DNA of 64,000 bases from an uncultured SAR86 cluster bacterium (GTDB lineage: Bacteria > Pseudomonadota > Gammaproteobacteria > Magnimaribacterales > D2472). The notes under the pieces are model-generated. The model saw nothing but the letters and a program-made list of their open reading frames with translations, searched no databases and had not been told where the DNA came from. Position numbers and translations under genes: made by a program. The stretch covers positions 914,831 through 978,830 of the forward strand of contig OX044367.1 in the NCBI GenBank assembly GCA_943846785.1, given 5' to 3'. Below are positions 14,671 to 50,398 of this stretch, in pieces; within the stretch, counting starts at the first letter, position 1, and every line of letters starts with the position of its first letter.

Positions 14671-14712
14671 AAATAATCTCCTTCTATTTTTTTACCATTT
14701 TTTGTGCATTTT

Positions 14713-15363: not shown

Positions 15364-15369
15364 AAAAAA

Positions 15370-18768: not shown

Positions 18769-18909
18769 TTCAGTTTAAATCTTATTATATTTAAAGAATT
18801 AAGGTATGCGTTTTTTTGAAAATCATTTATGCATGATTGCACAAAAAAAAATTTACAGACTATAAATGGATATATAAACTTGAAATGTTGTTTAAAAAAG
18901 TTTGAACCA

Positions 18910-19974: not shown

Positions 19975-20045
19975 AGTTAAATAAATTTTATATATTTCAA
20001 CAAATTGCTTTAGTATGTTGTTAATTTAAATAGGTGTAAAAAATT

Positions 20046-20969
20046 ATGAATAGAGTATTAAGAGATACAGGCGCAAAATATCCAATTGTTCAAGCTCCAA
20101 TGGGATGGATTGCAAGAAGCCAGTTAGCCTCAGCAGTATCGAATGCAGGTGGTTTAGGCGTTATTGAAACTTCTTCTGGTGAGGTTGATATTTGCAAAGA
20201 AGAAATTAAAAAAATGGCTAGCCTTACAGATAAACCTTTTGGAATAAATCTACCGTTACTATTCTTAAAAGACTCATCTATGGTAGATTTTTGTGTAGAT
20301 AACAATGTAAATTTTGTAACAACTTCTGCTGGTGATCCATCAAAATATATTAAAGTCTTAAAAGATGCAGATATTACTGTTTATCATGCTGTGCCTAACT
20401 TACAAGGCGCTCTTAAAGCATTTGAGGCTGGCGTTGATGGTCTTGTTGTTGAAGGAACCGAGGGAGGTGGATTTAAGGGTTATGAAGAAATCGGCTTAGC
20501 TGTTCTAATACAAGCTATTAAAAAAGAAATAGATTTACCAATCATTGCAGCTGGTGGAATAGTAAATGGTATAGGAATGGCATCAGCCTTTGCTGCAGGA
20601 GCTGAGGCTATTCAAATGGGAACACGCTTTGTTTCTTCAATAGAAAGCCCTGTTCATGATAATTTTAAAGATTCGATTAAAAGTGCAGGAACAGATGGAA
20701 CATATATTCTTAATAAATCCTCTAAGCCAGTCATAAGAGCATTAAAAACAGATTTTACTAAAGATATTTATGAGAAAGGTTCAATGAACATGGGAGATCT
20801 GGCAAAAATTAAAGATCTTTATTTTGGTGGCGATATGAATGCTGCACCAGCTTTAGCAGGACAATCATCAGGTTTAATTAATGAAATTAAGTCAGTTAAA
20901 AATATTATTGATGAAACTATAAGTGAATATAATCAAGTCTGTTTAAATCTATCAAAGAATCTTTTTTAA
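20046..20969 (+). CDS. nitronate monooxygenase (NMO, 2-nitropropane dioxygenase family)
   Basis: YPIVQAPMGWIA..AVSNAGGLGVIE, EGGGF, and IAAGGI..GTRF motifs of the FMN TIM-barrel NMO family. Confidence 0.8.
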   Translation: MNRVLRDTGAKYPIVQAPMGWIARSQLASAVSNAGGLGVIETSSGEVDICKEEIKKMASLTDKPFGINLPLLFLKDSSMVDFCVDNNVNFVTTSAGDPSKYIKVLKDADITVYHAVPNLQGALKAFEAGVDGLVVEGTEGGGFKGYEEIGLAVLIQAIKKEIDLPIIAAGGIVNGIGMASAFAAGAEAIQMGTRFVSSIESPVHDNFKDSIKSAGTDGTYILNKSSKPVIRALKTDFTKDIYEKGSMNMGDLAKIKDLYFGGDMNAAPALAGQSSGLINEIKSVKNIIDETISEYNQVCLNLSKNLF

Positions 20970-21062
20970 ATACGTATTTTTTACACATAATTCTTTCTTT
21001 TTCTTATTGCAAAGCTCATATATAATTTTGATTATTATTTATTTTATTAATAGGGGATTAGA

Positions 21063-28916: not shown

Positions 28917-29810
28917 ATGAAAAATAACCTTGAGTCTCATATTAAACTAAATGAAAACATCATAATTTACATAGATGGTGAATTGATTTCAAAAGCTGAT
29001 GCCAGTGTTTCTGTTTATGATAGTGGTTTTATGATGGGAGACGGCATATGGGAGGGTATACGACTAGTTAATAAAAAATGGCTGTTTTTAGATGATCATA
29101 TTGATAGGTTGTTCGAGGGCGCTAAGGCTATAGATCTTGATATTGGATTGACTAAAAATGATATAAAAAAGGAGCTATTTAAAACTCAAGAAGCTAATAA
29201 AATGACTGATAAAGCCCACGCAAGACTTATGGTTACTCGTGGGGTAAAAAGTAAACCGTTTCAACGACCATCCTATTCTCTTAACGGACCAACAATAGTA
29301 ATCATTATGGAGCATTCTGAAGATGCTACGGACAATCCACCAATCAAATTAGCTACAGTTTCTCAAGTAAGAGGAAACCCCATGGTACAAGACCCTAAGC
29401 TTAATAGTCATTCCAAACTTAATTGTATATTGGCCTGCATACAAGCAGAAAAAGCAGGAGCTGATGAGGCTTTAATGCTAGATCCTAATGGTTTTGTCAG
29501 TACAACTAATTCTTGTAATTTCTTTATAGTAAAAAATGGGCAGGTTTGGACTAGTACTGGTGACTATTGCATGAACGGCATTACTAGAAAAAAAATTATT
29601 GAGATTTGTATATCTAATAACATACCTATATTTGAGAAGAACTTTTCTTTAGTAGATGTATATTCAGCCGATGAGGCGTTTATAACTGGAACTCTAGGCT
29701 CATTAGTTTCTGTGGAATCTATAGATGGTAGATTGATTGAAAACAATGCTAATTACTCAATGACTCAACAACTCCTTCACCTATACAACGACTTAACTCA
29801 TAGTGTCTAA
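28917..29810 (+). CDS. class IV (branched-chain/D-amino-acid) aminotransferase family protein
   Basis: ..SVSVYDSGFMMGDGIWEGIR.. and the overall fold-type IV pattern. 297 aa. Confidence 0.8.
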   Translation: MKNNLESHIKLNENIIIYIDGELISKADASVSVYDSGFMMGDGIWEGIRLVNKKWLFLDDHIDRLFEGAKAIDLDIGLTKNDIKKELFKTQEANKMTDKAHARLMVTRGVKSKPFQRPSYSLNGPTIVIIMEHSEDATDNPPIKLATVSQVRGNPMVQDPKLNSHSKLNCILACIQAEKAGADEALMLDPNGFVSTTNSCNFFIVKNGQVWTSTGDYCMNGITRKKIIEICISNNIPIFEKNFSLVDVYSADEAFITGTLGSLVSVESIDGRLIENNANYSMTQQLLHLYNDLTHSV

Positions 29811-30528
29811 AAGGCAAAACATTGCAATCTGGTCAGGACCACGCAATCTATCCACAGCTTTAATGAGGAGTTTTGGGAACAGAAGAGATGTTACTGCTGT
29901 ATATGATGAGCCATTCTATGCATCATATTTGATAACAACTAAAAAGAAACATCCAATGTTTGATGAAGTTATAGAATCCCAAGAGAATGATTATAATCAA
30001 GTTGTTAAAGCCTGCACTAAGAGTGCTGGCAATGGTATTTGCTATCAAAAACACATGGTTCACCATTTACATCCCAACCACAGTAAAAAATGGATTTTAT
30101 CTTGTACAAACTGTTTCTTAATAAGAAAACCTGAAGAAGTGATTTCTAGCTTCCTTGATAAATGGCCGGAAGCAACATTTGAAGACTTTGGTTTCAAGGA
30201 ACAATTTGGTCTTTATAACTACCTTTTAGATAAAGGTGGCGAAGCTCCTGTGGTTGTAGATGCAAGTGATTTAAGAAATAACAGTGAAACAACATTAAAG
30301 AAACTTTGCTTTGCACTTAATATTGATTGGGATCCTTTAATGCTTTGTTGGACAACTGGTCTTAAAGACTATGATGGTGTTTGGGCAAAACATTGGTATC
30401 CATCTGTCATGCTTTCAAGTTCATTTAGGCCTGAATCAGGAAAAATAAAAGTTTATAGCCAAAATATTATTGATTTTGCTGATATTGCAAGAGATTATTA
30501 CAAAGAGCTATTTAAAAATAAAATATAG
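29803..30528 (+). CDS. sulfotransferase-like / P-loop-like protein of unknown function
   Basis: GTG start with an 8-nt overlap on the aminotransferase. IAIWSGPRNLSTALMRSF resembles a PAPS 5'-phosphosulfate-binding loop. The family assignment is from memory only. Confidence 0.4.
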   Translation: MSKRQNIAIWSGPRNLSTALMRSFGNRRDVTAVYDEPFYASYLITTKKKHPMFDEVIESQENDYNQVVKACTKSAGNGICYQKHMVHHLHPNHSKKWILSCTNCFLIRKPEEVISSFLDKWPEATFEDFGFKEQFGLYNYLLDKGGEAPVVVDASDLRNNSETTLKKLCFALNIDWDPLMLCWTTGLKDYDGVWAKHWYPSVMLSSSFRPESGKIKVYSQNIIDFADIARDYYKELFKNKI

Positions 30529-38040: not shown

Positions 38041-38096
38041 AAGAAGAAATATATCATCCAAGAAGATTTAAATGTAAATTATTTTATGTTCCTGCT

Positions 38097-38392
38097 TTAT
38101 TTTAAACTACTAATAAAATCATATATTGCATTAGCACATGATTCAGGATTTTCTATTACATTAAAATTAGCTGATTCAGGTATTAAAACTAAATCTACTA
38201 AAACTTGAACCAGCTTTTGTTTTTATCATTTTATAGCTACCTTTACTCGTTATAAATTGATTTTGACAAACAACTCCTGAAGATTGATGAACAGCATCAG
38301 GATAAATATCTTCTATCTCATCTCTAAATAAATATAAGTATCTATAAATATAAAAATAAAATACGTAAAACTCTTTAGAAGAGAATCCAACA
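38097..38392 (-). pseudogene. possible degenerate C-terminal remnant of an alpha/beta-hydrolase gene
   Basis: No start codon. A stop-free frame begins right after the mmsA stop (..LFRDEIEDIYPDAVHQSSGVVCQNQFITSKGSYKMIKTK..). After one frame switch it reads KLVQVLVDLVLIPESANFNVIENPESCANAIYDFISSLK*. This looks like an alpha/beta-hydrolase C-terminus with the His position replaced. Confidence 0.3.
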
Positions 38393-39880
38393 TCAATTAT
38401 CGTTTTTTGGGAATCCTAAGTCTACTTTGCTATCAGCTGGATTAGGCCATCTTGTAGCAATTGATTTAGTTTTTGTATAAAAATCTATAGATGAATTACC
38501 AAATGCTTTAGTTTCTGAAAAACCACTATCTTTCCAACCACCAAAACTATGAGAGTATGTAGGAAGAGGTATTGGTACATTGATGCCAACAGACCCTGCT
38601 TGAACTTCATTTGCCCATTTTTGTGCAACTCCGCCATCACGTGTGAATAGCGCAGCACCATTACCAAGTTTATGACTATCAGTTATATCCATAGCTTCCT
38701 CATATGAACTAGCCCTAACAAAACATAAAACAGGTCCAAATATTTCATTCTCATAAACTGACATACCAGGCCTCACATGATCAATTAAAGTAGCGCCAAC
38801 AAAAGAGCCTTCCTCCTTATCAGATAAAGGCCTGCCATCAAAAACTAATGATGCCCCTTCTGTCTCTGCTAAATCTATAAATGAATAAATACGATCTTTA
38901 TTTTCTTTTGAAATAACTGGACCTAGCTGAGTATCTGGATTATCTGTTTTACCCATTACAAGACTAGGTATTCTATCTTTGATTTTACCAACTAATTCGT
39001 CAGCAATATCTCCAACAGCAACAACAACAGACACTGCCATACATCTTTGACCAGCTGCGCCAAAACTTGCAGAAACAGCTGCATCTGCTGCCATGTCTAG
39101 ATCAGCGTCTGGAAGGACGATCATATGATTTTTTCCCCCACCAAGTGCCTGAATCTTAGTATTGTTTTGAACTCCTAAAATCTTTAAACTTTTTGCGACT
39201 GGTGTGCTTCCAATAAATGCCAATCCAGCTACTTTTTCATGACAAACTAGTTGTTCTACAATTTCTTTACCACCATTAAGAACGTTGTAACAACCATCTG
39301 GGAAACCTGATTCTTTAAATATATCAGCATATAATCTTGATATTGATGGAACCTTTTCACTGGGTTTGGCTATAAAGGTGTTGCCAGTAACTATAGCCAT
39401 AGATGCATGAAGAATTGGTATTAATATTGGAAAATTAAATGGTCCACAACCAACAACAACACCAATTGGGTATCTAACATCAGTAATATCTATACCACCT
39501 GCAACATTAGGACTCATTATGGATGGATAGAAATGCTGGACACCAGCAATATGTGTAAGAGCTTGAACAGCTCTATCTAATTCAGCCTCTGCATCAGGCC
39601 TTGTTTTACCAGCTTCTGTAATGCATATATCTATAATCTCTTCTGACTTATTGATGATTCCTTGTCGTAAATTCAGTATTAATTCAGCCCTGTAACTCAG
39701 ACCAGTTTTTGACCAAGTTATAAAAGTTTCAGCAGCTGCATTGATGGCATTATTAGTGGTGTCCTTAGTTGCATAAAGAACTTCACCTATATTAGAACCA
39801 TATGACGGATTTATAATACTTATTGATTCATTAGATTCGAAACATTCTTTGCCGTTTATATAATTTGTTACTTGATACAT
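38393..39880 (-). CDS. mmsA: CoA-acylating methylmalonate/malonate-semialdehyde dehydrogenase
   Basis: ALDH fold with a catalytic Cys context (GQRCMA). The C-terminal SFGGWKDSGF...FYTKTKSIATRW motif is typical of MmsA. Confidence 0.85.
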   Translation of the reverse strand: MYQVTNYINGKECFESNESISIINPSYGSNIGEVLYATKDTTNNAINAAAETFITWSKTGLSYRAELILNLRQGIINKSEEIIDICITEAGKTRPDAEAELDRAVQALTHIAGVQHFYPSIMSPNVAGGIDITDVRYPIGVVVGCGPFNFPILIPILHASMAIVTGNTFIAKPSEKVPSISRLYADIFKESGFPDGCYNVLNGGKEIVEQLVCHEKVAGLAFIGSTPVAKSLKILGVQNNTKIQALGGGKNHMIVLPDADLDMAADAAVSASFGAAGQRCMAVSVVVAVGDIADELVGKIKDRIPSLVMGKTDNPDTQLGPVISKENKDRIYSFIDLAETEGASLVFDGRPLSDKEEGSFVGATLIDHVRPGMSVYENEIFGPVLCFVRASSYEEAMDITDSHKLGNGAALFTRDGGVAQKWANEVQAGSVGINVPIPLPTYSHSFGGWKDSGFSETKAFGNSSIDFYTKTKSIATRWPNPADSKVDLGFPKNDN

Positions 39881-39916
39881 ATTTAATTCCTAATCATATA
39901 TGATATTTATATTGAC

Positions 39917-39935
39917 TATCCTAACCACTTGACTA
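39917..39935 (-). promoter_or_regulatory. putative mmsA promoter (-35 TTGATT, 17 nt, -10 TAGGAT) overlapping a shared operator-like motif
   Basis: The minus strand reads TTGATT-aagtttagtcaagtggt-TAGGATA. TCAAGTGGTTAGGATA matches 46383-46398 at 14 of 16 positions, including an identical 11-mer (CAAGTGGTTAG). The -10 box ends 37 nt before the mmsA ATG. Confidence 0.5.
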
Positions 39936-39971
39936 AACTTAATCAATAAAATTTATGTATATATATATTAA

Positions 39972-41537
39972 ATGCATTTCGATATAGCAATAATTGGTTA
40001 CGGTCCTGTGGGAGCAGTTGCAGCAAACATGTTTGGTGCAAGTGGTCATGATGTAGTAGTTATTGAACCAAAAAAAGATATATGGGATATACCTCGAGCT
40101 GTGGCTCTTGATGGACAAACTCAAAGAATTTTTCAGTCAATCGGTATTATTGATGATATAGCCAGAACTTCATTTGAAGGGCTTAAATTTATAAATAAAA
40201 AAGGTAAAGAAATCGTATATGTTGATTTTTCAAATAACCCACAGCCTAATGGATATTATGAAACTGTTGGTTTTAGCCAACCCGATCTTGAAAAAGATTT
40301 GAGATCAAGAGCGCTAAAATATGAAAATATAACTTTTAAATTAGGTAAGTCCCTTACAGAACTATCGTCAGAAATTAATAATAATCATTTAACCATAACC
40401 AATGTAGATACGGGTGAAGAAGAGAAAATTTCATCAACATATGTATTAGCATGTGATGGTGCTAATAGCTTTGTAAGACAAAAGCTTGATATAAGATCCT
40501 TTGATTACAAATGTGATCAAGATTGGATTGTTGTGGATTATGAAATAGATCCAAATTATGAAATTTTAGCTGGCCCTATGCATATATGTGATTATAAAAG
40601 ACCTACAACTGTTGCACATATTTCAGGGCGCCACATTAGATGGGAATTTAAATTTAATGAAGACGACGATGTTAATAAAGTAGAAAAGCATAGCTCAATT
40701 CGTTCAATGATGAAAAAACATGCATGGCGACTAAATCCTGATATTGATATCAATACTGGCAATATACTTAGAGCTAGTAAATATACTTTTCATGGGCTTG
40801 TTGCAGATACCTTTAAGTCAAATAACTGCTTTTTGGTTGGGGACTCAGCTCATCAAATGCCCCCCTTTCTCGGTCAAGGCTTGTGTCAAGGAATAAAGGA
40901 CGTTTACAACCTTCATTGGAAGTTAGATGGAGTGATTAGAGGTAAGTATGCTGACAGGATCTTAGAAACATATTCTGATGAGCGAATATCAATCGTTAAA
41001 TCAGTCACTGAAACTGCTATCAAACATGGCGGGGTTATTGGAACTCAGAATAAATATATAGCTTTGATTAGAGATACATTGCTTAACATGGCCAGAATTT
41101 TTCCAAAATTATTAAGCTTTTTTGATTTTTACCATCCTTGGCAAATTGATAATGGATTGATAGATAAGTCTTTATATCCGAATAAAGCAAACGGTATTGT
41201 AATATCACAACCAAGTTTAGACCTTAAAGTGGATAACAAACCATTTGATCAATTCATAGGTTATTCCTTTGCATTAATAGTTTTTGATCAAAATGAAATA
41301 TTGTTTAATGATATTAAAGCATTAGAAAGCTCAAAAATATTTGAAAATAATATTTATTTGATAGATAAAGATAGTCTATTTAATGAAGATAGTAATTTTA
41401 TAAAGTGGAAAAGGGATAATAATATTTCAGCAGTTATAATAAGACCAGACAGGCATGTATACGGATGTTGTGATGATGAATCAATGATTACAAAAGTTGA
41501 TGAATTAAATAAAAAATTAATAAGCGAGCTAACATGA
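39972..41537 (+). CDS. FAD-dependent aromatic-ring hydroxylase (MhpA/PheA-type monooxygenase family)
   Basis: FDIAIIGYGPVGAVAAN (GxGxxG), CDGANSFVR, and GDSAHQMPPFLGQGLCQGIKD motifs. Confidence 0.8.
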   Translation: MHFDIAIIGYGPVGAVAANMFGASGHDVVVIEPKKDIWDIPRAVALDGQTQRIFQSIGIIDDIARTSFEGLKFINKKGKEIVYVDFSNNPQPNGYYETVGFSQPDLEKDLRSRALKYENITFKLGKSLTELSSEINNNHLTITNVDTGEEEKISSTYVLACDGANSFVRQKLDIRSFDYKCDQDWIVVDYEIDPNYEILAGPMHICDYKRPTTVAHISGRHIRWEFKFNEDDDVNKVEKHSSIRSMMKKHAWRLNPDIDINTGNILRASKYTFHGLVADTFKSNNCFLVGDSAHQMPPFLGQGLCQGIKDVYNLHWKLDGVIRGKYADRILETYSDERISIVKSVTETAIKHGGVIGTQNKYIALIRDTLLNMARIFPKLLSFFDFYHPWQIDNGLIDKSLYPNKANGIVISQPSLDLKVDNKPFDQFIGYSFALIVFDQNEILFNDIKALESSKIFENNIYLIDKDSLFNEDSNFIKWKRDNNISAVIIRPDRHVYGCCDDESMITKVDELNKKLISELT

Positions 41538-42145
41538 ACAAAGTATCTAAATTAAAAACAATTAAAAGTAATAAAACAAAAGGCAGAGAGAATGTTGAGA
41601 AAAGATTAATTGAATCAGCTGCAGTGCTTGTCGGCTCTATAGGGCCTAACCAATTGAGTATCAGAGACATAGCCGACCATGCTGGTGTAAATCATGCTCA
41701 AATACATCACTACTTTGGTGGCAAAGACGGCTTGCTTATTGCTACATACAAGTTACTTGCTTTTGAACATATTGAGCAATTACAAAGAAGAAATGTTTCT
41801 CCAGACAATATGATTAGAGAGCCACTAGGAGATATAACAAATAATTACTTTAAAGCAATCATAAGAGCAGTGCTAGACAACCGCATGGACCTAGTCCGAG
41901 TGCAGGTTGATTCTAATCTATCAATGTCTAAAAAAACTCTAGATCAGTTAGTTAAGTTAAAAAATAAAAAAAAGCCTACTGCTGATATGAAAGCTGCTAT
42001 TGCATTGATTATGGTTCTAGAATTTGGGCTTGCATCAATGAAGCCATATATTATGGAAGTTTTAGATATCAGTGAAGAAGAAATGAAAAAATTCATGGAT
42101 TTATTCTTTAAAGCAAGGGATTTAGGTTTAAATGAAGTTCTATAA
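41534..42145 (+). CDS. TetR family transcriptional regulator
   Basis: HTH LSIRDIADHAGVNHAQIHHYFGGKDGL. ATGA overlap with the monooxygenase and a 14-nt overlap with the sulfatase. Confidence 0.85.
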   Translation: MNKVSKLKTIKSNKTKGRENVEKRLIESAAVLVGSIGPNQLSIRDIADHAGVNHAQIHHYFGGKDGLLIATYKLLAFEHIEQLQRRNVSPDNMIREPLGDITNNYFKAIIRAVLDNRMDLVRVQVDSNLSMSKKTLDQLVKLKNKKKPTADMKAAIALIMVLEFGLASMKPYIMEVLDISEEEMKKFMDLFFKARDLGLNEVL

Positions 42146-43682
42146 TATTTTATTATTATTTTTTACGCTGTCCATTTATAGTCAACCCAATGTAATAATA
42201 ATACTCACTGATGATCTTGGTTGGGGCGATGTTTCATATCATGACGGATTTATACCCACACCAAATATCGATAGTTTTGTTTCAAATGGTATTGAATTAA
42301 ATAGGTTTTACGCTAATCCGACATGTAGTCCTACTAGAGCGTCATTATTAACAGGACTTCATATATTTAATCATGGAGTTATTAGGCCCTTCATGAACCC
42401 ATCAGCTGAACAAACAGGTCTACCCGAACACCTAAAAATAATGCCAGAATATTTTAAAGAGGCTGGTTATCAGACAGCATTATCTGGCAAGTGGCATCTA
42501 GGCATGCATAAAGAAGAATATTTACCAACCAATAGAGGTTTTGATTCTAGTTATGGTCATATGTTAGGTGGTATCGGCTACTATGATCATGTTCACACCA
42601 ATCGAATGGACTGGCATAGAGATGGCGTCTCATTAAGTGAAGATGGATACTCAACAGAATTAATTGCTGATGAAGCTATTAACATAATTGAAAATAAAGA
42701 TGACGACCGCCCTCTTTTTCTTTATGTCGCATTTAATGCTCCTCACACACCAATTGAGGCTCCTGAAGAAGATGTTAATAATTTTTTATATATAGAAGAT
42801 GAGCTAGACCGAAATTATGCTGCAAATATTAGCAAGCTTGATATTGAAATTGGCAGAATTATTAATTCAATAAAAGCTTCTGGGTTGCTTGAGGAAACTA
42901 TCATTATATTTTTAAGCGATAATGGACCTGTTTTCGATATAAATCCTATAGTTAAAACAATTGCACCCGGTTTAACTAAATCTAAGGGCAGTACCGCTGG
43001 TCTTAGAGGTAGCAAAACTTCAGCTCTCGATGGTGGAATAAGAGTACCTGCAGCTATATGGTGGAAAGGAATCCTTGAACAATCAAAAACTGATCAATTT
43101 ATGTTTATACAAGATTTACTTCCAACACTCTTAACAGCAACAGGGATTGGTTATGATGAAGATTTACTCATTGATGGAGTTGATAGATGGTCTAATCTAG
43201 TAACAAATAAAATCACACCTCCTGATAATGCATTTGTTGGAAATAAGATCATCTTTGATGAAAGAGCGCTCTTTAATAACGAATGGAAGCTTTATTATAA
43301 AAAACCAGTAATGTTTAATGTAGAAGGTACCTTTAAGCTTTTTAATATAGTTAATGATCCCTATGAAACTGTAGATTTATCAACTACTGAAATAAATATT
43401 TTTGATGAAATGAAAGATACTTTGATGAATATCAAAGAGCTTAATAGTATAGGTACAATAGACCCTGTGCATGCATACCTGCACGGAGATTCCGAAGGTG
43501 GAGATGTGGTTGGCTCACCTTGGTTGGATAGAGATTACGAGCTTAACGAGCCTGTATCAAAGACGGTAGGTTTGTTTGTAATGATATGGGTTTTAATTCA
43601 ATCATTCAAATATCAACTAATAGGACTAATACTTTTGTTTGTAACATGCCGATTTGCATACAAAAGATACAAAGTTAGATAA
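42132..43682 (+). CDS. Cys-type arylsulfatase with a C-terminal hydrophobic anchor
   Basis: Signal peptide, TDDLGWGD, and the CSPTRASLLTG formylglycine motif. The last approximately 45 aa (VGLFVMIWVLIQSF..LIGLILLFVTCRFAYKRYKVR) are hydrophobic and followed by a basic tail. Confidence 0.85.
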   Translation: MKFYNILLLFFTLSIYSQPNVIIILTDDLGWGDVSYHDGFIPTPNIDSFVSNGIELNRFYANPTCSPTRASLLTGLHIFNHGVIRPFMNPSAEQTGLPEHLKIMPEYFKEAGYQTALSGKWHLGMHKEEYLPTNRGFDSSYGHMLGGIGYYDHVHTNRMDWHRDGVSLSEDGYSTELIADEAINIIENKDDDRPLFLYVAFNAPHTPIEAPEEDVNNFLYIEDELDRNYAANISKLDIEIGRIINSIKASGLLEETIIIFLSDNGPVFDINPIVKTIAPGLTKSKGSTAGLRGSKTSALDGGIRVPAAIWWKGILEQSKTDQFMFIQDLLPTLLTATGIGYDEDLLIDGVDRWSNLVTNKITPPDNAFVGNKIIFDERALFNNEWKLYYKKPVMFNVEGTFKLFNIVNDPYETVDLSTTEINIFDEMKDTLMNIKELNSIGTIDPVHAYLHGDSEGGDVVGSPWLDRDYELNEPVSKTVGLFVMIWVLIQSFKYQLIGLILLFVTCRFAYKRYKVR

Positions 43683-44337
43683 TTTCACATACCTCATTAA
43701 AATCTAAACGAGGAAGTCTCATAAATATTTTAGATGGATCGCCATATCCAATACAACAAAGAAAATTTGATTTAATATTTGTTCCGCTGAAAAATACTTC
43801 ATCAACAATTGCATTATTAAACCCAGACATAGGCCCACAATCTAAACCTAAAGCTCTTGATACCATCATAAAATATGCACCTTGAAGACTGCTATTTCTA
43901 AAAGCAGTTGAGTGATTCATGATTTCATTATTTTTATACATTGGTGCAACATCCATATGTGGAAACAGCTTGCCCATATTGTCAGAAAAATCTAGATCAA
44001 ATCCTATAATTGCAATAACAGGAGCAGACATAACTTTATCTATATTGTTAGGTAAAAGAGATTCTTTGAGTTTAAGTTTTTGTTCCTCACTTTTTATAAA
44101 CTTAAATCGGGCAGGACAGCAATTGGTGCTTGTTGGACCCATTTTTGTAAGCTCATAAATAGATCTAATTAGTTCCTCAGAGACATCTTTATCTTGCCAA
44201 CCATTCATACTTCTTGCTTCACCAAACAATAAATTTAATTGGGAATCATTTAGCGCTTCATTATTATTTTTTAAATTAGAAAAAGTTTCTTGAGCAGCAG
44301 CTACTGCTATTTTTTGATCATCAGTTAGTTCAACCAT
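43675..44337 (-). CDS. rutE: RutE-like nitroreductase-family malonic semialdehyde reductase
   Basis: Close parallel to E. coli RutE as I recall it (..NGW..GPTS.NC.PAR..F..AFRNSS.Q.AY....RALGLD.GPMSGF..SN.L..IGYGD.SK.F.RLPRL.F.E.C). Confidence 0.75.
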   Translation of the reverse strand: MVELTDDQKIAVAAAQETFSNLKNNNEALNDSQLNLLFGEARSMNGWQDKDVSEELIRSIYELTKMGPTSTNCCPARFKFIKSEEQKLKLKESLLPNNIDKVMSAPVIAIIGFDLDFSDNMGKLFPHMDVAPMYKNNEIMNHSTAFRNSSLQGAYFMMVSRALGLDCGPMSGFNNAIVDEVFFSGTNIKSNFLCCIGYGDPSKIFMRLPRLDFNEVCEII

Positions 44338-44339
44338 TA

Positions 44340-45437
44340 TTAGTCCTCAGTAGAAGCTTTTGCAGCCATTTCCATTTCTTTAATCATGCCTGGTATTGTT
44401 GGGTTTTCAGCCCTTGCATTGTCAATTTGATCAACAGGCATAGTTATACCAAAGGTATTTGGTACTTCTGGCCCATATTGAGCCATAGCCAGATCTCTAA
44501 ATCCTGAATTCTCAGTTGGTACTGAAGCATCTATAAGGTCTCCATCAGTCCAATGTTCATGTGTAAATCCATGTGGATCTCTCCAATAATCATACATCTG
44601 ACTACCAAGTAAATGTCTACCTATGCCCCATTCATGATAATACTCATCAACCGTTTTCATATGGTAATGACCTGCCATTAAGTCATCTACTGAATCTGTT
44701 ACCTCATAACCTGCATGTCCATAAGCAACAACATCCATATTACCGGGCAAACCCATGTTATTTAATGTGTGATGATCAACAGGTTTATTACCTTGGTTGC
44801 ATCTCATAAAAGCGCCCATTGAGTTACCATCTGGCCCAATACAGTTATTACTAGTTAAAAAACCAAGAGTGTTTGCATACCAATCAATAGATGCTTGAGG
44901 ATCTTTACAATTAATAGCGGTATGCCCTAATCTTTTTACTTTTGAAGTTAACTCATACACCCATTTATCACCATGAACCTGCCATTCATCAGATGCACGT
45001 CCAAAACGTTGTAATTCATTTTCTCTTTGCTTTGATTGACCTGTATTTAATACTTTTGAAACAATAGCAACAGGTTCTGCAGGTACCATTCCGTGACAAA
45101 CCTCAACTTCAATACCGTCAGGATCAATAATAGTAACTTTATGCCCTCCACCAGGCTCATTATTTTCAACAATATCAACATTAAATTCATTAGATAAAGC
45201 TTCTAAATCTGAATAATTATTAGCTTCATATGCTGAGCCTATATATTTATTTTCATTACCTTTAGTAGCTACATATATATAAGGTGATGTACCTGTTCCT
45301 CTAAAAAAAATACTATTTTCATTTTCATGCGCAAGAATCATTCCAAAATGATTTAAATATTTCTTTTGAGCCTCAAATTCCTCAAGCTCAAATCTGACAT
45401 AAATAATGTCAGCTATTTTACATATAGGTTCTTTCAT
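44340..45437 (-). CDS. two-domain VOC (glyoxalase/extradiol dioxygenase) superfamily protein
   Basis: 365 aa with two beta-alpha-beta-beta-beta-type modules (..YVRFELEEFE.., ..LGHTAINCKDPQASIDWY..). Substrate unknown. Confidence 0.6.
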   Translation of the reverse strand: MKEPICKIADIIYVRFELEEFEAQKKYLNHFGMILAHENENSIFFRGTGTSPYIYVATKGNENKYIGSAYEANNYSDLEALSNEFNVDIVENNEPGGGHKVTIIDPDGIEVEVCHGMVPAEPVAIVSKVLNTGQSKQRENELQRFGRASDEWQVHGDKWVYELTSKVKRLGHTAINCKDPQASIDWYANTLGFLTSNNCIGPDGNSMGAFMRCNQGNKPVDHHTLNNMGLPGNMDVVAYGHAGYEVTDSVDDLMAGHYHMKTVDEYYHEWGIGRHLLGSQMYDYWRDPHGFTHEHWTDGDLIDASVPTENSGFRDLAMAQYGPEVPNTFGITMPVDQIDNARAENPTIPGMIKEMEMAAKASTED

Positions 45438-45439
45438 AA

Positions 45440-46300
45440 TTATTTCTCCTTTAATAATCTAGTAATTTCTGACAAAGCAAGATCTTCATATTTATTAGAT
45501 CCATTGCCATATAATGATTGAATTTCTATCTCCCATTCACCAGTTACATAATCTAATATTCCTTCTTTATAACTGGGTCTAGCTTGAATAATTTTCCAAT
45601 ATTTAGCTATGTTTGGTAAATTCTCACTTGTTAAAAGATTAGTAAATCTCATCTCATTAATTCTATGAAGAATTGAAGTCATGCAGGAGTCTATTGCAGT
45701 ATATTGATCTCCCATCATAAATGGCTTTTCATGTTTAAGAATATCCTCTATATAAACTAGATGCTTGGATAGTGCTAAAACCATTTTTTTACACAACTTT
45801 TCAGGTGGTTTACCAAGAATCCTTAAAAGGATAAAAATAGGTATTCTTTTTTTGATGGAATGTTTGGTTGAATAATCCCAAATAACACTCAGTAAAGATC
45901 TTTTACACAAAAGTCTTACTAAGATAGTTGCTGAAATACCACCAGCGGTTGTTCCTAATGTCTCACCTAGCTCTTTTTTCTCATCAAGTTTTACAAAATC
46001 CAGAAGGTTGTTAAATATATCTTGGTTGATATTTTCAGGAAAAAGATCTGTACCATCAATATAGGTAGAATTAATATGACGCATTATTTGGATGCTGTCA
46101 GGAATAACATTTCCGTTATCAATCATAGTGGGAACTAGATTTTTAGGATTTAACTTTTTGTACTTTTTGGATAGATGGTCACCTTTAGATTCCAAATATA
46201 AAAGATTGTAATCATAAGAAATATTTTTTTCAGATAAAGCAACTCTTGCCATATTTGAGGCAACAGACTCACCGTATCCATATAGCTCTATTTTATGCAT
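45440..46300 (-). CDS. GST-like protein (thioredoxin-fold N-domain, long C-domain)
   Basis: IELYGYGESVASNMARVALSEKNISYDY..NPKNLVPTM.. is typical of a GST N-domain. 286 aa. Confidence 0.6.
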   Translation of the reverse strand: MHKIELYGYGESVASNMARVALSEKNISYDYNLLYLESKGDHLSKKYKKLNPKNLVPTMIDNGNVIPDSIQIMRHINSTYIDGTDLFPENINQDIFNNLLDFVKLDEKKELGETLGTTAGGISATILVRLLCKRSLLSVIWDYSTKHSIKKRIPIFILLRILGKPPEKLCKKMVLALSKHLVYIEDILKHEKPFMMGDQYTAIDSCMTSILHRINEMRFTNLLTSENLPNIAKYWKIIQARPSYKEGILDYVTGEWEIEIQSLYGNGSNKYEDLALSEITRLLKEK

Positions 46301-46348
46301 TAAATTAAATCAAATAATTTCATATGTCATAAGTAAAACATAAATTAT

Positions 46349-46367
46349 TATTTTATCCAACTGGATA
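46349..46367. promoter_or_regulatory. perfect palindrome TATCCA-AC-TGGATA (operator-like site 1)
   Basis: 46354-46367 is TATCCAACTGGATA. The minus-strand reading CCAGTTGGATAAAATA (46349-46364) matches the 46383-46398 motif at 12 of 16 positions. It lies in the divergent GST-like / receptor intergenic region. Confidence 0.45.
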
Positions 46368-46398
46368 GTTGTAATTTTCTATCCAAGTGGTTAGAATA
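46366..46398 (+). promoter_or_regulatory. putative receptor-gene promoter (-35 TTGTAA, 17 nt, -10 TAGAAT) overlapping operator-like site 2
   Basis: TTGTAA-ttttctatccaagtggt-TAGAAT. TATCCAAGTGGTTA (46380-46393) is a 13-of-14 copy of site 1. The -10 box ends 36 nt before ATG 46434. Confidence 0.5.
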
Positions 46399-46433
46399 AA
46401 TAAATCAATATTTATATTTCCTAGGGGGAAAAT

Positions 46434-48860
46434 ATGTCAATTAAAAAAATGTTTTTAACATACACTTTTATTTTTACAGGTCTATATGTTCAGGATGTAA
46501 TATCACAAGAGTCATCTGATTCAAGACTTGAAGAAGTTGTTGTAACAGCACAGAAGAAAGAGGAAGGTCTTTCAGAGGTACCTATTTCAATTCAAGTTCT
46601 TTCTGATGAGATGATTGAATCCAGAGGTGTAACATCAATGAAACATCTTGCTGAATATATTCCTGGATTACATATATCAAAGGGCGCGGGTGAATGGAAT
46701 GTATATATGAGAGGTATTGGATCAGGAACAAATAAAGGTTTTTCTCAATCAATTACAACTTTTATAGATGGCATGCCAATTACTCAAGGGTCTCAATACT
46801 CATCTCCCCTAATGGATGTTGAGAGGGTTGAGGTTTTGAGAGGAACTCAAGGTGTTCTATTTGGTAAAAATACTATTGGTGGTGTTATTAATATGGTTAG
46901 TAAATCACCTACCATTGGTGGTGAAACTGAGGGAAACTGGGGTATTGAATATGTCCCTGAATGGAATACTAAAAAATATAACGGAGCTATGAATATTCCT
47001 GTCAGTGATTCATTTGCAATGAGAATAGCTGTCCAAAAAGAAATGTCAGATGGATGGGTCACAAATGCTTACCAGGACACTGGCAGTAGTCCAGAAAATG
47101 AATCTGAGGCAATAAGAGCTACTATGTTATGGGAATTAGATAATATGGAAGTAAATTTAAAATTATCTTCTTTAAGTTCAGAAAAAAAAGGCTCAGAAGC
47201 TGGTATATATAAATACGAACTTTCTGCACCATTTGGAGCATTAGCAACAGCTACTCCTCCATATACAGGCGCAGTAATTAATTGGAGAATAACTAATGCA
47301 TTCTTCTCAGATCAAATTGTGGGAGTTCCTGGTGTTACTTATTCAGATAATACAACCTATCAAAATCCTACAGGAGGAACTGTTGATTCAGATAATGCAA
47401 TTTTAAAACTTTCCACATCATGGAACGATCATGATGTTGTGTCTACAACATCATATTCTGTATACGATTATAAGTGGGGGCTTGATGCAGATTTTGGACC
47501 TCTTGCTCTAATTGCTGTTGATAATGATGTTGATTTTAAATCTGTAACCCAAGAAGTAACTATATCTTCTCCAGTAGACGATAAATTTGAATATATTTTT
47601 GGTTTTTACTACGATGATATTCATTACGATGGAATAAATGATGGCATGTTTGATATGTCAGTTGGAGGTCTTTTTGGTCAAATATTCCCTCTTCCAAACA
47701 TCTTCGCTCTTCAGACTAGAGGAGCCTTTTCTGCAGATTTTGCTGCCACACATACATCTAATGATCAGAAATCTACTACCAAATCAATTTTTGCTGAAGG
47801 TACCTATTATGTTAGTGATAAATTAACTATAAAAGCTGGTGTTCGTTTTTCTGATGATGAAAAAGATGTTAAAAGTATTCAAGGTATGAGCTCTTCTGCA
47901 ACTCCTGGAGGATTAGGAAGGGAGAACTTTACTTTGGCACCACCAGTACTTGGTGTTTTTAATGCTTTGGCTAGCCGAAAAGTTCATAACTTTCCGATTC
48001 AATCCAGATCAGAAAATCATACTACTCCTTCTTTAAAAGTACTATATGATTTTTCTGATACTACTCGCCTTTATTTAAGTTATGCAGAAGGTTACAAAAT
48101 GGGTGGTTTTGATGGATCTGAAAATGCTCCTCAAATAAACTCCACTACACCTGGTGATGCTTTTCAGTTTGATGCTGAACAGGCTGAAACATTAGAAATT
48201 GGTGCAAAAATGGATTTTCCTGAAAGAAGTCTAAGAGCTAGTTTTGCTTACTTCTCAACCGACTATACAGATATGCAAGTATCAATTTTTAACGGATCAT
48301 CATTTCAGGTTTCAAATGCTGGTGAATCAGAAATAGATGGAGTAGAAGCAGAATTTACTTGGGCTCCAACTGATAATATTGTAATTGGAGGTTCAGCTAC
48401 AACTCTTGATTTTGCATATGGAGCATATGTAGGTGGTTGTACAGCAGATCAAGAAGTTGCTTATAGACTAGCTAATTTAACTAAGATTGGTTGTGTACAA
48501 AATCAAGCTGGACAAACTGGTAATAATGCACCAGAGCTAGCTGCTTCAATGTATGCAAATTATTACAATAATCTAAGTGCAGATTGGGATATGGTCCTTT
48601 CAGTTAATGCGAATTATCAAGATGAGGTATATACAAATACTGACAATGACCCAGATGCTTTTCAAGAAGCTTATACAAAAATTAATTTAAGTGCATCTTT
48701 TGAGCATTCTAACGGGTTAAATGTATCCGTATTTGCAAGAAATGTTACAGATGAAATAACTGCTACCCAACTATTAGACTTACCCCTAGTACCTGGATCG
48801 CATTTTGCACTATGGGCTCCTGGAAAAGAAGTTGGTCTATCAGTTAGAAAAACTTTTTAA
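46434..48860 (+). CDS. TonB-dependent outer-membrane receptor
   Basis: Signal peptide, the plug (EEVVVTAQKK, VEVLRGTQGVLFGKNTIGGVINMVSK), and a barrel ending ..SVRKTF. A strong SD (GGGGGA) precedes the start. Confidence 0.9.
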   Translation: MSIKKMFLTYTFIFTGLYVQDVISQESSDSRLEEVVVTAQKKEEGLSEVPISIQVLSDEMIESRGVTSMKHLAEYIPGLHISKGAGEWNVYMRGIGSGTNKGFSQSITTFIDGMPITQGSQYSSPLMDVERVEVLRGTQGVLFGKNTIGGVINMVSKSPTIGGETEGNWGIEYVPEWNTKKYNGAMNIPVSDSFAMRIAVQKEMSDGWVTNAYQDTGSSPENESEAIRATMLWELDNMEVNLKLSSLSSEKKGSEAGIYKYELSAPFGALATATPPYTGAVINWRITNAFFSDQIVGVPGVTYSDNTTYQNPTGGTVDSDNAILKLSTSWNDHDVVSTTSYSVYDYKWGLDADFGPLALIAVDNDVDFKSVTQEVTISSPVDDKFEYIFGFYYDDIHYDGINDGMFDMSVGGLFGQIFPLPNIFALQTRGAFSADFAATHTSNDQKSTTKSIFAEGTYYVSDKLTIKAGVRFSDDEKDVKSIQGMSSSATPGGLGRENFTLAPPVLGVFNALASRKVHNFPIQSRSENHTTPSLKVLYDFSDTTRLYLSYAEGYKMGGFDGSENAPQINSTTPGDAFQFDAEQAETLEIGAKMDFPERSLRASFAYFSTDYTDMQVSIFNGSSFQVSNAGESEIDGVEAEFTWAPTDNIVIGGSATTLDFAYGAYVGGCTADQEVAYRLANLTKIGCVQNQAGQTGNNAPELAASMYANYYNNLSADWDMVLSVNANYQDEVYTNTDNDPDAFQEAYTKINLSASFEHSNGLNVSVFARNVTDEITATQLLDLPLVPGSHFALWAPGKEVGLSVRKTF

Positions 48861-48902
48861 GTTGAACTATTAATTATTGGTCCCCCTGATCAATAGCTAA
48901 GA

Positions 48903-48943
48903 AAATCATGGTGGAGTAATTGCCTTCACCATGATTTATTTTT
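48903..48943 (+). terminator. rho-independent terminator after the receptor gene
   Basis: AAATCATGGTG (48903-48913) pairs perfectly with CACCATGATTT (48927-48937). The tail is ATTTTT. Confidence 0.65.
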
Positions 48944-48965
48944 CAAAAAATATTAAGGAGAAAAA

Positions 48966-49877
48966 ATGGGTTTTAAATTAGCAAACGTAAATGGTAAATC
49001 ATCTCTTATTTATGGTGAATCTTATTATGATATAAATACTATTTCCCAGGGTAAAATTTCATCAGACCCATCAGAAGTATTAGATTCGTTAAATGATTTG
49101 CATGAATTATCTAGTAACATTAATAACTTTGAACCAACAGGATTGATAGAAAACTCTTTATTAGGAGCACCTATTACAAATTCTAGAAATTGTTTTGCTG
49201 TTGGTTTAAATTATAAAGCGCATGCAGAAGAAAGCGGTATGGAGATTCCGCCATTTCCAATGGTTTTTACTAAACATACTTCTTGTATTGTTGGACCTTT
49301 TGAAGAAATTCAAATGAGAAGTGATATTGTTGATTATGAAGCAGAACTGGTTGTTGTAATAGGCAAGGAAGGTAAAAATATAACAAAGGCTAATGCTTGG
49401 GAACATGTTGCTGGATTAACTGTAGGTCAAGATATATCTGATAGAGCTGTTCAATTTCATGCAACCCCTCCTCAGTTTAATCTAGGTAAATCATTTGACA
49501 CGTTTGGACCAATAGGTCCTTGTTTGGTGTCACCTGATTTAGTTACTAATAAAGATGCAGTGCAGCTCCAATGCTATGTAAATGATGAATTAAGACAGGA
49601 AACAAGTACAGATGATTTAATATTTACAGTACCAGATATCATTTCTTACATATCAGAATTCCTAACATTAAATACTGGAGATCTGATATTTACGGGAACA
49701 CCATCAGGTGTTGGTGCTACTCAAGGTAAATTACTTAAACACGGTGATATAGTCACAACATCCATTAATGAAATTGGAACTATTATAAATAAGTGTATTA
49801 GAATTAATAATCATTCAAATGTAGATTATATGCCTGAGTTTTTAAAAGGAAAAATTCCAGCAGAAGATAATACTTAA
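48966..49877 (+). CDS. fumarylacetoacetate hydrolase (FAH) family protein
   Basis: VGLNYKAHAEE, DYEAELVVVIGK, and GDLIFTGTPSGVG motifs. Confidence 0.85.
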   Translation: MGFKLANVNGKSSLIYGESYYDINTISQGKISSDPSEVLDSLNDLHELSSNINNFEPTGLIENSLLGAPITNSRNCFAVGLNYKAHAEESGMEIPPFPMVFTKHTSCIVGPFEEIQMRSDIVDYEAELVVVIGKEGKNITKANAWEHVAGLTVGQDISDRAVQFHATPPQFNLGKSFDTFGPIGPCLVSPDLVTNKDAVQLQCYVNDELRQETSTDDLIFTVPDIISYISEFLTLNTGDLIFTGTPSGVGATQGKLLKHGDIVTTSINEIGTIINKCIRINNHSNVDYMPEFLKGKIPAEDNT

Positions 49878-49942
49878 ATCATTTATAACAGATCAACTGT
49901 ATTTCTTTAGACTTTAAATCTACTAAATACTTTATGTGCAAA

Positions 49943-50398
49943 CTATTTAGATTTATGGCCTGGAACTAAATTAGCAGACTCAATACCAGCAATAGCACAA
50001 ATTTCATCTTGATCAGACACATCACCGGTTACACCAACGGCGCCAATATTTTTTCCATCTTTTTGGATAAGCATTCCACCAGGTGTTGGAACAAGTTTAC
50101 CCCCTGCCATTGTTTGCATTCCAGTTACAGCTGGTGCCAATCTTGGTTGACCTTCAAATACATCTCTTAATGTATTAGACGAAACATTAAATGCTAAACA
50201 TGTCCATGCTTTAGCATAAGCAATATCAGACCTTATTAATCCTGAGCCCTCTTCAGATAATGATGCTCTTACAACACCTGCTACATCAACTACAGTAACA
50301 GTTAATGGCATTAAGTTTAATTCTCTTCCCTTTTTTAAAGCTTCTTTGCATATATTTAATGCTTCATCTAACTTAATTTCACCTGGGTTGATAATCAT
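49943..50398 (-). CDS. GlcG/HbpS-like (DUF336) heme-binding protein
   Basis: ..AYAKAWTCLAF.. and GGMLIQKDGKNIGAVGVTGDVSDQDEICAIAGI match the family pattern. Confidence 0.7.
   Translation of the reverse strand: MIINPGEIKLDEALNICKEALKKGRELNLMPLTVTVVDVAGVVRASLSEEGSGLIRSDIAYAKAWTCLAFNVSSNTLRDVFEGQPRLAPAVTGMQTMAGGKLVPTPGGMLIQKDGKNIGAVGVTGDVSDQDEICAIAGIESANLVPGHKSK

Follow-up and report, generated by a model that had tools for sequence, protein, structure and literature searches.

In this study, we examined a gene cluster of an uncultured SAR86 cluster bacterium, located at positions 38393–50398 of a 64,000-nucleotide stretch of contig OX044367.1 (hereafter the window). Judged from its sequence, the cluster may well be a chromosomal, apparently TetR-controlled catabolic regulon for a sulfated phenolic compound, which would be degraded by a route resembling the DntB, DntD, DntG, and DntE steps of 2,4-dinitrotoluene (2,4-DNT) degradation. 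We infer each reaction, and the class of substrate, from what was seen directly: the family memberships of the proteins, their conserved linkage, a shared operator, and the homology to Dnt proteins. In the proposed route, a TonB-dependent outer-membrane receptor (TBDR) would import the sulfate ester, a membrane-anchored periplasmic sulfatase would take off the sulfate, and the freed phenol would pass into the cytoplasm. There, a FAD hydroxylase would yield a 1,2,4-trihydroxybenzene (hydroxyquinol type) or its quinone, and a DntD-like extradiol dioxygenase would open the ring to 2,4-dihydroxy-6-oxohexa-2,4-dienoate, an acylpyruvate; a DntG-like FAH-family enzyme would then release pyruvate and malonate (or methylmalonate) semialdehyde, the latter being turned into acetyl- (or propionyl-) CoA by an MmsA/DntE-like dehydrogenase. 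An earlier note on this DNA had listed ten genes in the interval and read them as a complete route for a sulfated aromatic compound. The ten open reading frames (ORFs) lie at exactly the coordinates and strands it gave (table 1), and its family assignments hold against Pfam and NCBIfam; uptake, desulfation, hydroxylation, extradiol cleavage, FAH-type C–C hydrolysis, and malonate-semialdehyde disposal fit the evidence presented here, whereas GST-type isomerisation finds no support and the cleavage is not of the hydroquinone type.

The ring-cleavage core and its Dnt relatives

By sequence and predicted fold, the two-domain VOC protein is a BphC-type extradiol dioxygenase. Residues H172, H241, and E294 are invariant in an alignment of 22 VOC homologues, as are H223, H275, and Y284; the metal-ligand residues align with their counterparts in 3b59 and lie in the C-terminal domain, as in BphC, and the spacing of the invariant residues fits that of H146/H195/H210/H241/Y250/E260 in BphC. 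The AF2 model (pLDDT 90.9) consists of two tandem VOC domains of beta-alpha-beta-beta-beta modules, and its best Foldseek matches in the PDB, all with probability 1.00, are RHA1 DHBD, AphC, C23O, HsaC, HPCD, and BphC, with 3b59 and LapB also among its neighbours, every one of them an extradiol dioxygenase. A profile of the VOC family likewise found BphC, HPCD, HsaC, and C23O in the PDB. The two-domain fold and the 2-His-1-carboxylate triad place the protein among the type I extradiol dioxygenases. Neither the PDB sequences that the VOC profile found at E ≤ 1, 48 in number, nor the top 50 Foldseek matches in the PDB include a PcpA or LinE chain, and a PcpA/LinE-like hydroquinone dioxygenase, one of the two options entertained in the earlier note, is thereby ruled out in favour of a BphC/HPCD-type, DntD-like enzyme.

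The closest characterised relative that we found by sequence comparison is DntD (31% identity over 298 aa, E 1e-43, BLASTP). Against the VOC family profile DntD scores 208.6 bits, compared with 84.5 for the best PDB chain, 3b59, and 44 for BphC, and it shares with the family the motif WGIGRHxxGSQ(I/M)(F/Y)DYWxDPxGxxxEH(F/W)TDGDL. Relative to DntD, the marine long form of the protein carries an additional insert of ~17 residues and a helical tail of ~40 residues. The company that the gene keeps, namely a (methyl)malonate-semialdehyde dehydrogenase (MSDH), an FAH-family hydrolase, and demethylase or hydroxylase partners, suggests a preference for 1,2,4-trihydroxylated rings.

The three remaining proteins of the core point in the same direction. 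The FAH-family protein (PF01557, 213.9 bits) has the acidic metal-site residues and the His/Glu segment of its family, and it aligns with DntG over 216 aa (38% identity, E 9e-44), its segments VGLNYKAHAEES, DYEAEL, and GQDISDR corresponding to VGLNYADHTAES, DYEGEM, and GNEVSVRD of DntG; the His/Glu pair of the NYxxHxxE motif presumably plays the part ascribed to it in FAHD1. Its nearest NCBIfam model is that of 2,4-didehydro-3-deoxy-L-rhamnonate hydrolase, a 2,4-diketo-acid hydrolase (184 bits, below the cut-off of 500), and in the PDB it matches 6v77 (E 1e-58). The aldehyde dehydrogenase (ALDH) is, by every sequence measure applied, a bona fide CoA-acylating MSDH: it scores 497.4 bits against TIGR01722, above the cut-off of 448.5, its ten best PDB matches are all MSDH or methylmalonate-semialdehyde dehydrogenases (E 1.7e-124), and it shares 36% identity with DntE over 465 aa (E 1.6e-104). 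The hydroxylase (PF01494, 168 bits; NF004829, 390.5 bits) is more distantly DntB/PnpA-like, with PnpA as best PDB match (E 1.2e-18) and 25% identity to DntB over 375 aa (E 3e-25). Thus, homologues of DntB, DntD, DntG, and DntE, whose sequences were taken from the supplement of PMC10602510, are encoded in the window no more than 12 kb apart.

In the lower 2,4-DNT pathway, DntB is a 4-methyl-5-nitrocatechol monooxygenase and DntC a non-specific hydroxymethylquinone reductase (PMC10602510; see also PMC3757077), DntD is a 2,4,5-trihydroxytoluene oxygenase, DntG a bifunctional isomerase/hydrolase, and DntE a CoA-dependent methylmalonate-semialdehyde dehydrogenase, the end products being pyruvate and propionyl-CoA (PMC10602510). 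The pathway of Burkholderia cepacia R34 and Burkholderia sp. DNT employs the enzyme families of the cluster in a matching succession of steps, from an FAD monooxygenase and a quinone reductase step through a VOC extradiol dioxygenase for a 1,2,4-trihydroxy-arene and an FAH-family isomerase/hydrolase to a CoA-acylating (methyl)malonate-semialdehyde dehydrogenase. Extradiol cleavage of 1,2,4-trihydroxybenzene next to the isolated C–H gives 2,4-dihydroxy-6-oxohexadienoate, the keto form of which is an acylpyruvate. FAH-type hydrolysis of this compound would give pyruvate and malonate semialdehyde, exactly what MSDH and RutE consume. Unlike the DNT system, the cluster has neither a nitroarene dioxygenase nor the LysR-type DntR; it has in addition a TetR regulator, a TBDR and a periplasmic sulfatase, one or two GSTs, and a RutE-type flavoprotein, and what it degrades in nature is surely not a nitrotoluene. 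By homology, then, the catabolic core is the known DntBDGE-type trihydroxyarene meta-cleavage module, and the statement of the earlier note that no characterised system has this composition needs to be narrowed: what appears to be new is the coupling of the core to a TBDR, a periplasmic sulfatase, insertion-bearing GSTs, and a TetR operator system, together with its conservation in dominant marine plankton. In the literature on SAR86 sulfatase, TBDR, and GST clusters, and on marine arylsulfatases with extradiol dioxygenases, we found general statements only, and in that on hydroxyquinol meta cleavage no characterised marine case.

A homoprotocatechuate-type meta pathway, in which a phenol resembling 4-hydroxyphenylacetate would be hydroxylated to a catechol, cleaved by an HPCD-like enzyme, and passed to the FAH protein acting as an HpcE-type decarboxylase/isomerase, seems to us very improbable. 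HpaD is the top, albeit weak, NCBIfam match of the VOC protein, whose 365 aa equal the length of HPCD, and the FAH protein has matches to both models and structures of HpaG/HpcE; yet the scores fall far below the cut-offs (41.7 vs. 321 bits and 156 vs. 276 bits), DntD and DntG are nearer relatives, the conserved gene set comprises no isomerase, hydratase, or aldolase, and the ALDH is of the MSDH rather than the HpaE type (252 vs. 638 bits). An HPPD/homogentisate route was also rejected, no match to an HPPD model having been found.

Linkage across relatives and a shared operator

We collected 85 loci in which a relative of the VOC protein is encoded and scored them with the ten proteins of the window as well as by all-against-all clustering of their ORFs. 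Among the 53 marine loci, many of which are incomplete so that the counts are lower bounds, the VOC gene is accompanied by GST in at least 42 loci, by sulfatase in 38, FAH in 35, TBDR in 34, hydroxylase in 34, reductase in 30, TetR in 29, and ALDH in 27. Such an arrangement is far beyond chance. The nine-gene set, with its order reshuffled, is kept in several SAR86 genera, in SAR92/Porticoccaceae, in Maricurvus nonylphenolicus, and in marine Rhodobiaceae (Alphaproteobacteria), so that the neighbourhood is conserved across orders and classes. The GlcG-like gene, which the earlier note had counted as a member, was found in only 3 of 40 comparable loci and is thus probably a neighbour. The cluster is represented by thousands of metagenome sequences, a single group of VOC proteins at 90% identity comprising 1,373 of them, and the VOC family has 284 representatives; cultured strains with the cluster are SAR92 H231, SAR92 H921, and M. 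nonylphenolicus KU41E.

For gene presence we compared 63 loci, free of redundancy and each 12 kb or longer, 40 with the long and 23 with a short form of the VOC protein; the long-form loci are marine, the short-form loci terrestrial. In the alphaproteobacterial short-form relatives (306–308 aa), for example of Parvibaculum, the VOC gene is next to those for FAH and hydroxylase, and GST, sulfatase, TBDR, and MSDH are missing. These three genes occur together in 27–30 of the long-form and 18–19 of the short-form loci.

A different entry to the same ring may exist in metagenome-assembled genomes of Halieaceae/Congregibacter (L035–L037 and L039), where the same VOC family is accompanied by one or more VanA-like Rieske oxygenases, a VanB-like reductase, a small FAD hydroxylase, a LysR regulator, an FAH protein, a CMD-family protein, a TBDR, and a distant sulfatase (26–29% identity). 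The locus looks like a methoxyphenol-fed version of the pathway, the VanA/VanB-like O-demethylase and the small FAD hydroxylase offering another route to a trihydroxybenzene.

A TBDR gene adjoins the GST–VOC genes in all gammaproteobacterial loci, and two families fill that slot. The two found in SAR86, one in the window and in L007, L010, L014–L017, L030, and L031, the other in L001, L011, and L018–L020, are unrelated (25–28% mutual identity) and lie on opposite strands, with the same operator motif upstream of both. This motif is a 14-bp palindrome. Two copies, TATCCAACTGGATA and TATCCAAGTGGTTA, in the GST/TBDR region are the only exact matches in the 64 kb, and a third, TAACCACTTGACTA, stands in the ALDH/hydroxylase divergent region. 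A degenerate operator pattern matches four times across the window where 2.3 matches are expected, which is not above chance, although three of the four fall within the two short divergent promoter regions; the evidence for the operator is therefore its placement and its conservation across loci, not the window-wide count. The ALDH/hydroxylase copy is found at the same place in all SAR86 loci examined for that region and takes the form TAGCCANNTGGCTA in SAR92/Porticoccaceae loci; two or three GST/TBDR copies are conserved in SAR86 loci with the TBDR arrangement of the window, and in SAR86 genomes with the other TBDR family the motif lies 48 bp upstream of that gene. Each copy sits between promoter-like hexamers (at 39912–39939 for the ALDH/hydroxylase copy), and the GST/TBDR palindromes overlap promoter-like hexamers on both strands; a sigma-70 promoter scan is weakly informative here, having returned fewer matches than shuffled sequence did.

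The hydroxylase and TetR genes overlap by 4 nt and the TetR and sulfatase genes by 14 nt, and 2 nt separate GST from VOC and VOC from reductase, close couplings that the earlier note had recognised and that follow from the coordinates; the number of transcription units, given there as four, has to be corrected, as the note itself listed five. Because the palindrome stands in both divergent promoters and recurs in relatives, a single TetR-type regulon is suggested: there is good evidence that one repressor, presumably the TetR protein of the cluster, would control the ALDH, hydroxylase–TetR–sulfatase, GST–VOC–reductase, and TBDR units.

Variation at the edges of the cluster was also seen. Directly after it, two SAR92-like contigs, L002 and L004 (12227–13441), carry a phage-type integrase and an XylR-like sigma-54 activator; L003, with identical cluster genes, runs on into housekeeping genes, which points to a strain-variable insertion at the cluster edge. 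A DUF1330 protein, a cytochrome b561, or both recur near the cluster or its sulfatase in SAR86 and Rhodobiaceae loci (L001 19165–20054, L010 18318–18632, L044 11089–11397, and L047 1843–2412).

Sulfatase, glutathione-dependent step, and substrate

The sulfatase (PF00884, 197 bits) bears the CSPTRASLLTG and GYQTALSGKWH signatures, and with them the CxPxR and GKxxH motifs of family S1; a signal-like segment is present at its N-terminus and a hydrophobic anchor at its C-terminus. Its best PDB matches are ARSB (GalNAc-4-sulfatase), carrageenan sulfatases, and the Pseudomonas arylsulfatase. A choline-sulfate (BetC/BetI) system was considered and rejected, the weak BetI and choline-sulfatase matches being far below their cut-offs.

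Gene linkage suggests a sulfated aromatic compound as the substrate. Zosteric acid and other sulfated phenolic acids occur in seagrasses and green algae (PMC7601137), and sulfated phenolics are also documented in invertebrates (PMC6780655). Since SAR86 genomes are reported to give no support for sulfate incorporation, except for a putative permease in one family (PMC11582366), desulfation most plausibly unlocks carbon rather than sulfur. Two known systems resemble this arrangement in part, as follows. The Pseudomonas ats/sft loci join the TonB-dependent receptor SftP to sulfatases with whose help aryl and alkyl sulfate esters are used. They provide sulfur when sulfate is limiting and are not known to be linked to ring cleavage, whereas the cluster is tied to carbon catabolism in sulfate-rich seawater. 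Polysaccharide utilisation loci of Bacteroidota with S1 sulfatases also have a TonB-dependent transporter and periplasmic sulfatases co-regulated with catabolic enzymes; the cluster differs in having aromatic ring-hydroxylating and ring-cleaving enzymes in place of SusD, glycoside hydrolases, and sugar catabolism.

The sulfatase and receptor might serve some other substrate, such as a sulfolipid, a sulfated sugar, or a steroid sulfate, and merely adjoin an ordinary phenol-degrading module for unsulfated aromatics, a possibility that we regard as unlikely. The relationship to GalNAc-4-sulfatase and carrageenan sulfatases agrees with it, as do the assignment of SAR86 arylsulfatases to sulfolipid desulfation (PMC11582366) and the existence of VOC-core loci with no sulfatase within 10 kb (e.g., L033). 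Conversely, the TetR gene overlaps the sulfatase gene at one end and the hydroxylase gene at the other; from SAR86 and SAR92 to Maricurvus and Rhodobiaceae, orthologous sulfatases stay with the cluster although gene order is extensively reshuffled; the operator motifs tie the TBDR promoter to that of hydroxylase–TetR–sulfatase; and the conserved set contains no glycosidase, lipase, or beta-oxidation gene.

The earlier note had assigned the GST protein an isomerase step, and suggested a comparison with maleylpyruvate isomerase-like proteins. S12, S15, P57, and S69 are invariant in 15 orthologues, as expected of a canonical Ser-type GST, and a conserved insertion of ~65 residues separates the two domains. 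Profile comparison with the PDB ranks GDAP1 first, zeta-class MAAI second, and LigF third. Against TIGR01262 (maiA) the protein scores 61.9 bits, the cut-off being 171.05, and the match is limited to residues 6–93, that is, to the N-terminal domain; its identification as MaiA (maleylacetoacetate isomerase) is thus rejected. In the 63 loci compared (non-redundant and at least 12 kb, but not phylogenetically independent), the long GST and the orthologous sulfatase occur together in 23, the GST alone in 8, the sulfatase alone in none, and neither in 32. Because the long GST is tied to the sulfatase and not to the ring-cleavage core, it would act on the aglycone or its quinone rather than as an isomerase, probably by conjugation, reduction, dehalogenation, or ether cleavage, an assignment that forms the weakest part of the model. 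A second insertion-bearing GST of ~285 aa (family 9) lies within the cluster in 15 loci, Rhodobiaceae among them (e.g., L001 11766–12620 and L047 2438–3301); the window is without it.

In gentisate and homogentisate pathways (NagI/NagL/NagK; HmgA/MaiA/FahA), as in the cluster, the flavin hydroxylase and the dioxygenase that cleaves the ring are followed by a GST-fold protein and an FAH-family hydrolase; in those pathways the dioxygenases are cupins. A similar logic in SAR86, where a maleyl-type enedione would undergo GST-catalysed cis-trans isomerisation with glutathione before FAH hydrolyses the fumaryl product, would accord with the likeness of the GST N-terminal domain to zeta-class maleylacetoacetate/maleylpyruvate isomerases, with the fumarylpyruvate and maleylpyruvate hydrolases (FAH family) among the PDB matches, and with the translational coupling of GST, VOC, and reductase. 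We nonetheless find it quite unlikely. The GST falls well below the maiA cut-off and matches in one domain only, it has the insertion and GDAP1 as best profile match, and the ring-cleavage enzyme is a DntD-like VOC extradiol dioxygenase, not a cupin. Fumarate with pyruvate or acetoacetate, the outputs of those pathways, would require no malonate-semialdehyde dehydrogenase and would leave the dedicated one under the same operator unexplained. Moreover, short-form VOC–FAH–hydroxylase clusters do without any GST, and the 2,4-DNT route as given in PMC10602510 has no GST step.

Halogenated, for instance brominated, phenol sulfates have also to be weighed. The hydroxylase would form a haloquinone, the nitroreductase-fold protein would reduce it, and the GST would dehalogenate it reductively before ring cleavage, in an architecture like that of pentachlorophenol or 2,4,5-trichlorophenoxyacetate (2,4,5-T) degradation. 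In the lower pathways for pentachlorophenol and gamma-hexachlorocyclohexane (PcpB-PcpD-PcpC-PcpA; LinD-LinE), flavin hydroxylase, quinone reductase, GST, and a VOC-fold cleavage enzyme are found together. The cluster differs from these in that its dioxygenase, by profile and fold searches alike, is not PcpA/LinE-like, and in lacking a maleylacetate reductase. Several observations speak for halogenated substrates: the flavin hydroxylase and the nitroreductase-fold protein have one or two Ser-type GSTs as neighbours, genes for an alpha/beta hydrolase of the Asp-nucleophile type and for a haloalkane-dehalogenase-like protein adjoin the cluster in several SAR86 loci, the orthologous sulfatase is never seen without GST, and bromophenols are widespread marine metabolites (PMC7601137). 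Even so, dehalogenase activity cannot be inferred from sequence, and the window has lost the alpha/beta hydrolase and is without the second GST. We consider this reading unlikely, and it is a refinement of the sulfated-phenol route rather than a true alternative to it.

The RutE-type protein (PRK05365, 271.8 bits, cut-off 152; best PDB match IstO, E 1.4e-35) could, by its family, reduce malonate semialdehyde or fill the quinone-reductase role of DntC. Some SAR92 loci have a small GST in place of its gene, and in Rhodobiaceae a CMD/AhpD-like protein is encoded beside the VOC gene, which hints at an auxiliary redox role. Both it and the GST would more plausibly deal with quinones or substituents.

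Several points weigh against a DntBDGE-like regulon for a sulfated phenol. The identities to the Dnt proteins are modest (25–38%), DntE-like MSDHs are also ordinary enzymes of valine and beta-alanine catabolism, and the co-occurrence counts across loci are not phylogenetically independent. The sulfatase fails the arylsulfatase equivalog model NF010322/PRK13759 (142.6 vs. 481 bits) and counts carbohydrate sulfatases among its nearest solved relatives, and the cluster encodes no inner-membrane transporter. A strong terminator separates the FAH gene from the TBDR gene, and no operator motif was found upstream of FAH. Finally, the role of the GST is putative, and its structure model is too poor to help (pLDDT 63 on a shallow alignment, below 50 in the insertion).

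Setting of the locus and meaning for SAR86

The features of the cluster are listed in table 1. The window has a GC content of ~32%, and that of the cluster is the same as that of its flanks. On one side lie the housekeeping genes nqr, apbE, purB, mnmA, icd, and clpS-clpA, on the other phoD, peptidases, and aminotransferases. As the GC content equals that of the flanks and the icd-clpS-clpA flank is preserved in other SAR86 genera, the cluster is not an island in the sense of horizontal transfer, contrary to the name it had been given. Scans of the window for tRNA genes and Rfam families gave no match, hence no RNA element or integration-site signal.

Table 1. Features of the cluster and its promoter regions, in window coordinates
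Feature	Position	Strand	Basis
Remnant (24 aa) of an alpha/beta-hydrolase-like gene (family 13)	38112–38183	-	tblastn, 71% identity over 24 aa
Aldehyde dehydrogenase (MmsA/DntE-like, predicted CoA-acylating (methyl)malonate-semialdehyde dehydrogenase)	38393–39880	-	TIGR01722, PDB, DntE comparison
Operator-like palindrome TAACCACTTGACTA	39922–39935	.	ALDH/hydroxylase divergent promoter region
Group-A FAD aromatic hydroxylase, FAD_binding_3, MhpA/PRK06183 superfamily	39972–41537	+	PF01494, NF004829
TetR-family regulator, presumed repressor of the cluster	41534–42145	+	PF00440
Formylglycine-type S1 sulfatase, N-terminal signal-like segment, C-terminal membrane anchor	42132–43682	+	PF00884
RutE-type FMN nitroreductase-fold protein	43675–44337	-	PRK05365
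Two-domain VOC protein, predicted type I extradiol dioxygenase of the DntD family, marine long form	44340–45437	-	PF00903, AF2 model
Ser-type GST-fold protein, GDAP1-like/zeta-like	45440–46300	-	Pfam GST_N, GST_C
Two operator-like palindromes, TATCCAACTGGATA and TATCCAAGTGGTTA, 26 bp apart	46354–46393	.	GST/TBDR divergent promoter region
TonB-dependent outer-membrane receptor	46434–48860	+	Plug and barrel Pfam matches
Intrinsic-terminator-like hairpin 3' of the TBDR gene	48903–48937	+	14-bp stem and T-run
FAH-family hydrolase, DntG-like, acylpyruvate-hydrolase type	48966–49877	+	PF01557
HbpS/GlcG-like protein	49943–50398	-	PF03928

The closest public relative of the VOC protein (96% identity) is encoded by a SAR86 metagenome-assembled genome, L010, whose gene for the FAD hydroxylase is broken up into two ORFs (13904–15470), as a pseudogene or through an assembly error. 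In 14 related loci a full-length gene of family 13, which encodes an unannotated protein of ~430 aa with a GHDRG motif and a weak Abhydrolase_1 match, adjoins the ALDH gene downstream; in the window a 24-aa remnant is left in the ALDH–phoD intergenic region (38062–38392), and this genome has therefore lost a cluster member.

Elsewhere in the window, a second S1 sulfatase (17496–18768, minus strand) appears to be divided between two overlapping ORFs of 171 and 258 aa, by a frameshift or an assembly error; its neighbours (18829–23501) are an MBL-fold protein, a nitronate-monooxygenase-like protein, and another TonB-dependent receptor (21063–23501), and together they may form another sulfatase/receptor neighbourhood. 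At 16110–17024 (minus strand), two abutting ORFs, one of 191 aa and one of 112 aa, have the look of a broken alpha/beta-hydrolase gene, the shorter resembling the haloalkane-dehalogenase-like gene that adjoins the cluster in six other SAR86 loci (e.g., L006 20271–21092). A Sulfotransfer_5-domain protein is encoded at 29803–30528 (plus strand), with a class IV aminotransferase on one side and an S10-type carboxypeptidase-like protein on the other, and thus the genome has a sulfotransferase as well as sulfatases.

SAR86 is among the most abundant bacterial groups of the surface ocean, and its diet is largely obscure; a probable use of "aromatic, polycyclic and heterocyclic" compounds has been put forward, their identity not being specified (PMC11582366). 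The cluster suggests sulfated phenols of plant or animal origin as a food source for ocean bacteria, and it gives a concrete proposal, with a defined receptor, a sulfatase, and a ring-cleavage route for which DntD, DntG, and DntE provide biochemical precedent. The lower DNT pathway, regarded as "xenobiotic", may have a natural ancestry of this kind. More tentatively, it is conceivable that several of the most abundant heterotrophs of the surface ocean (SAR86, SAR92, relatives of OM60/Halieaceae, and marine Rhodobiaceae) share a receptor- and sulfatase-gated route for sulfated polyphenols through hydroxyquinol meta cleavage, the polyphenols possibly being halogenated or ether-linked and the insertion-bearing GSTs carrying out a new glutathione-dependent step on the aglycone. 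If this were true, aryl sulfates would constitute a sizeable labile pool of dissolved organic carbon in the sea that has so far gone unrecognised. Overall, the finding overturns nothing; it makes specific the notion that SAR86 probably eats aromatics.

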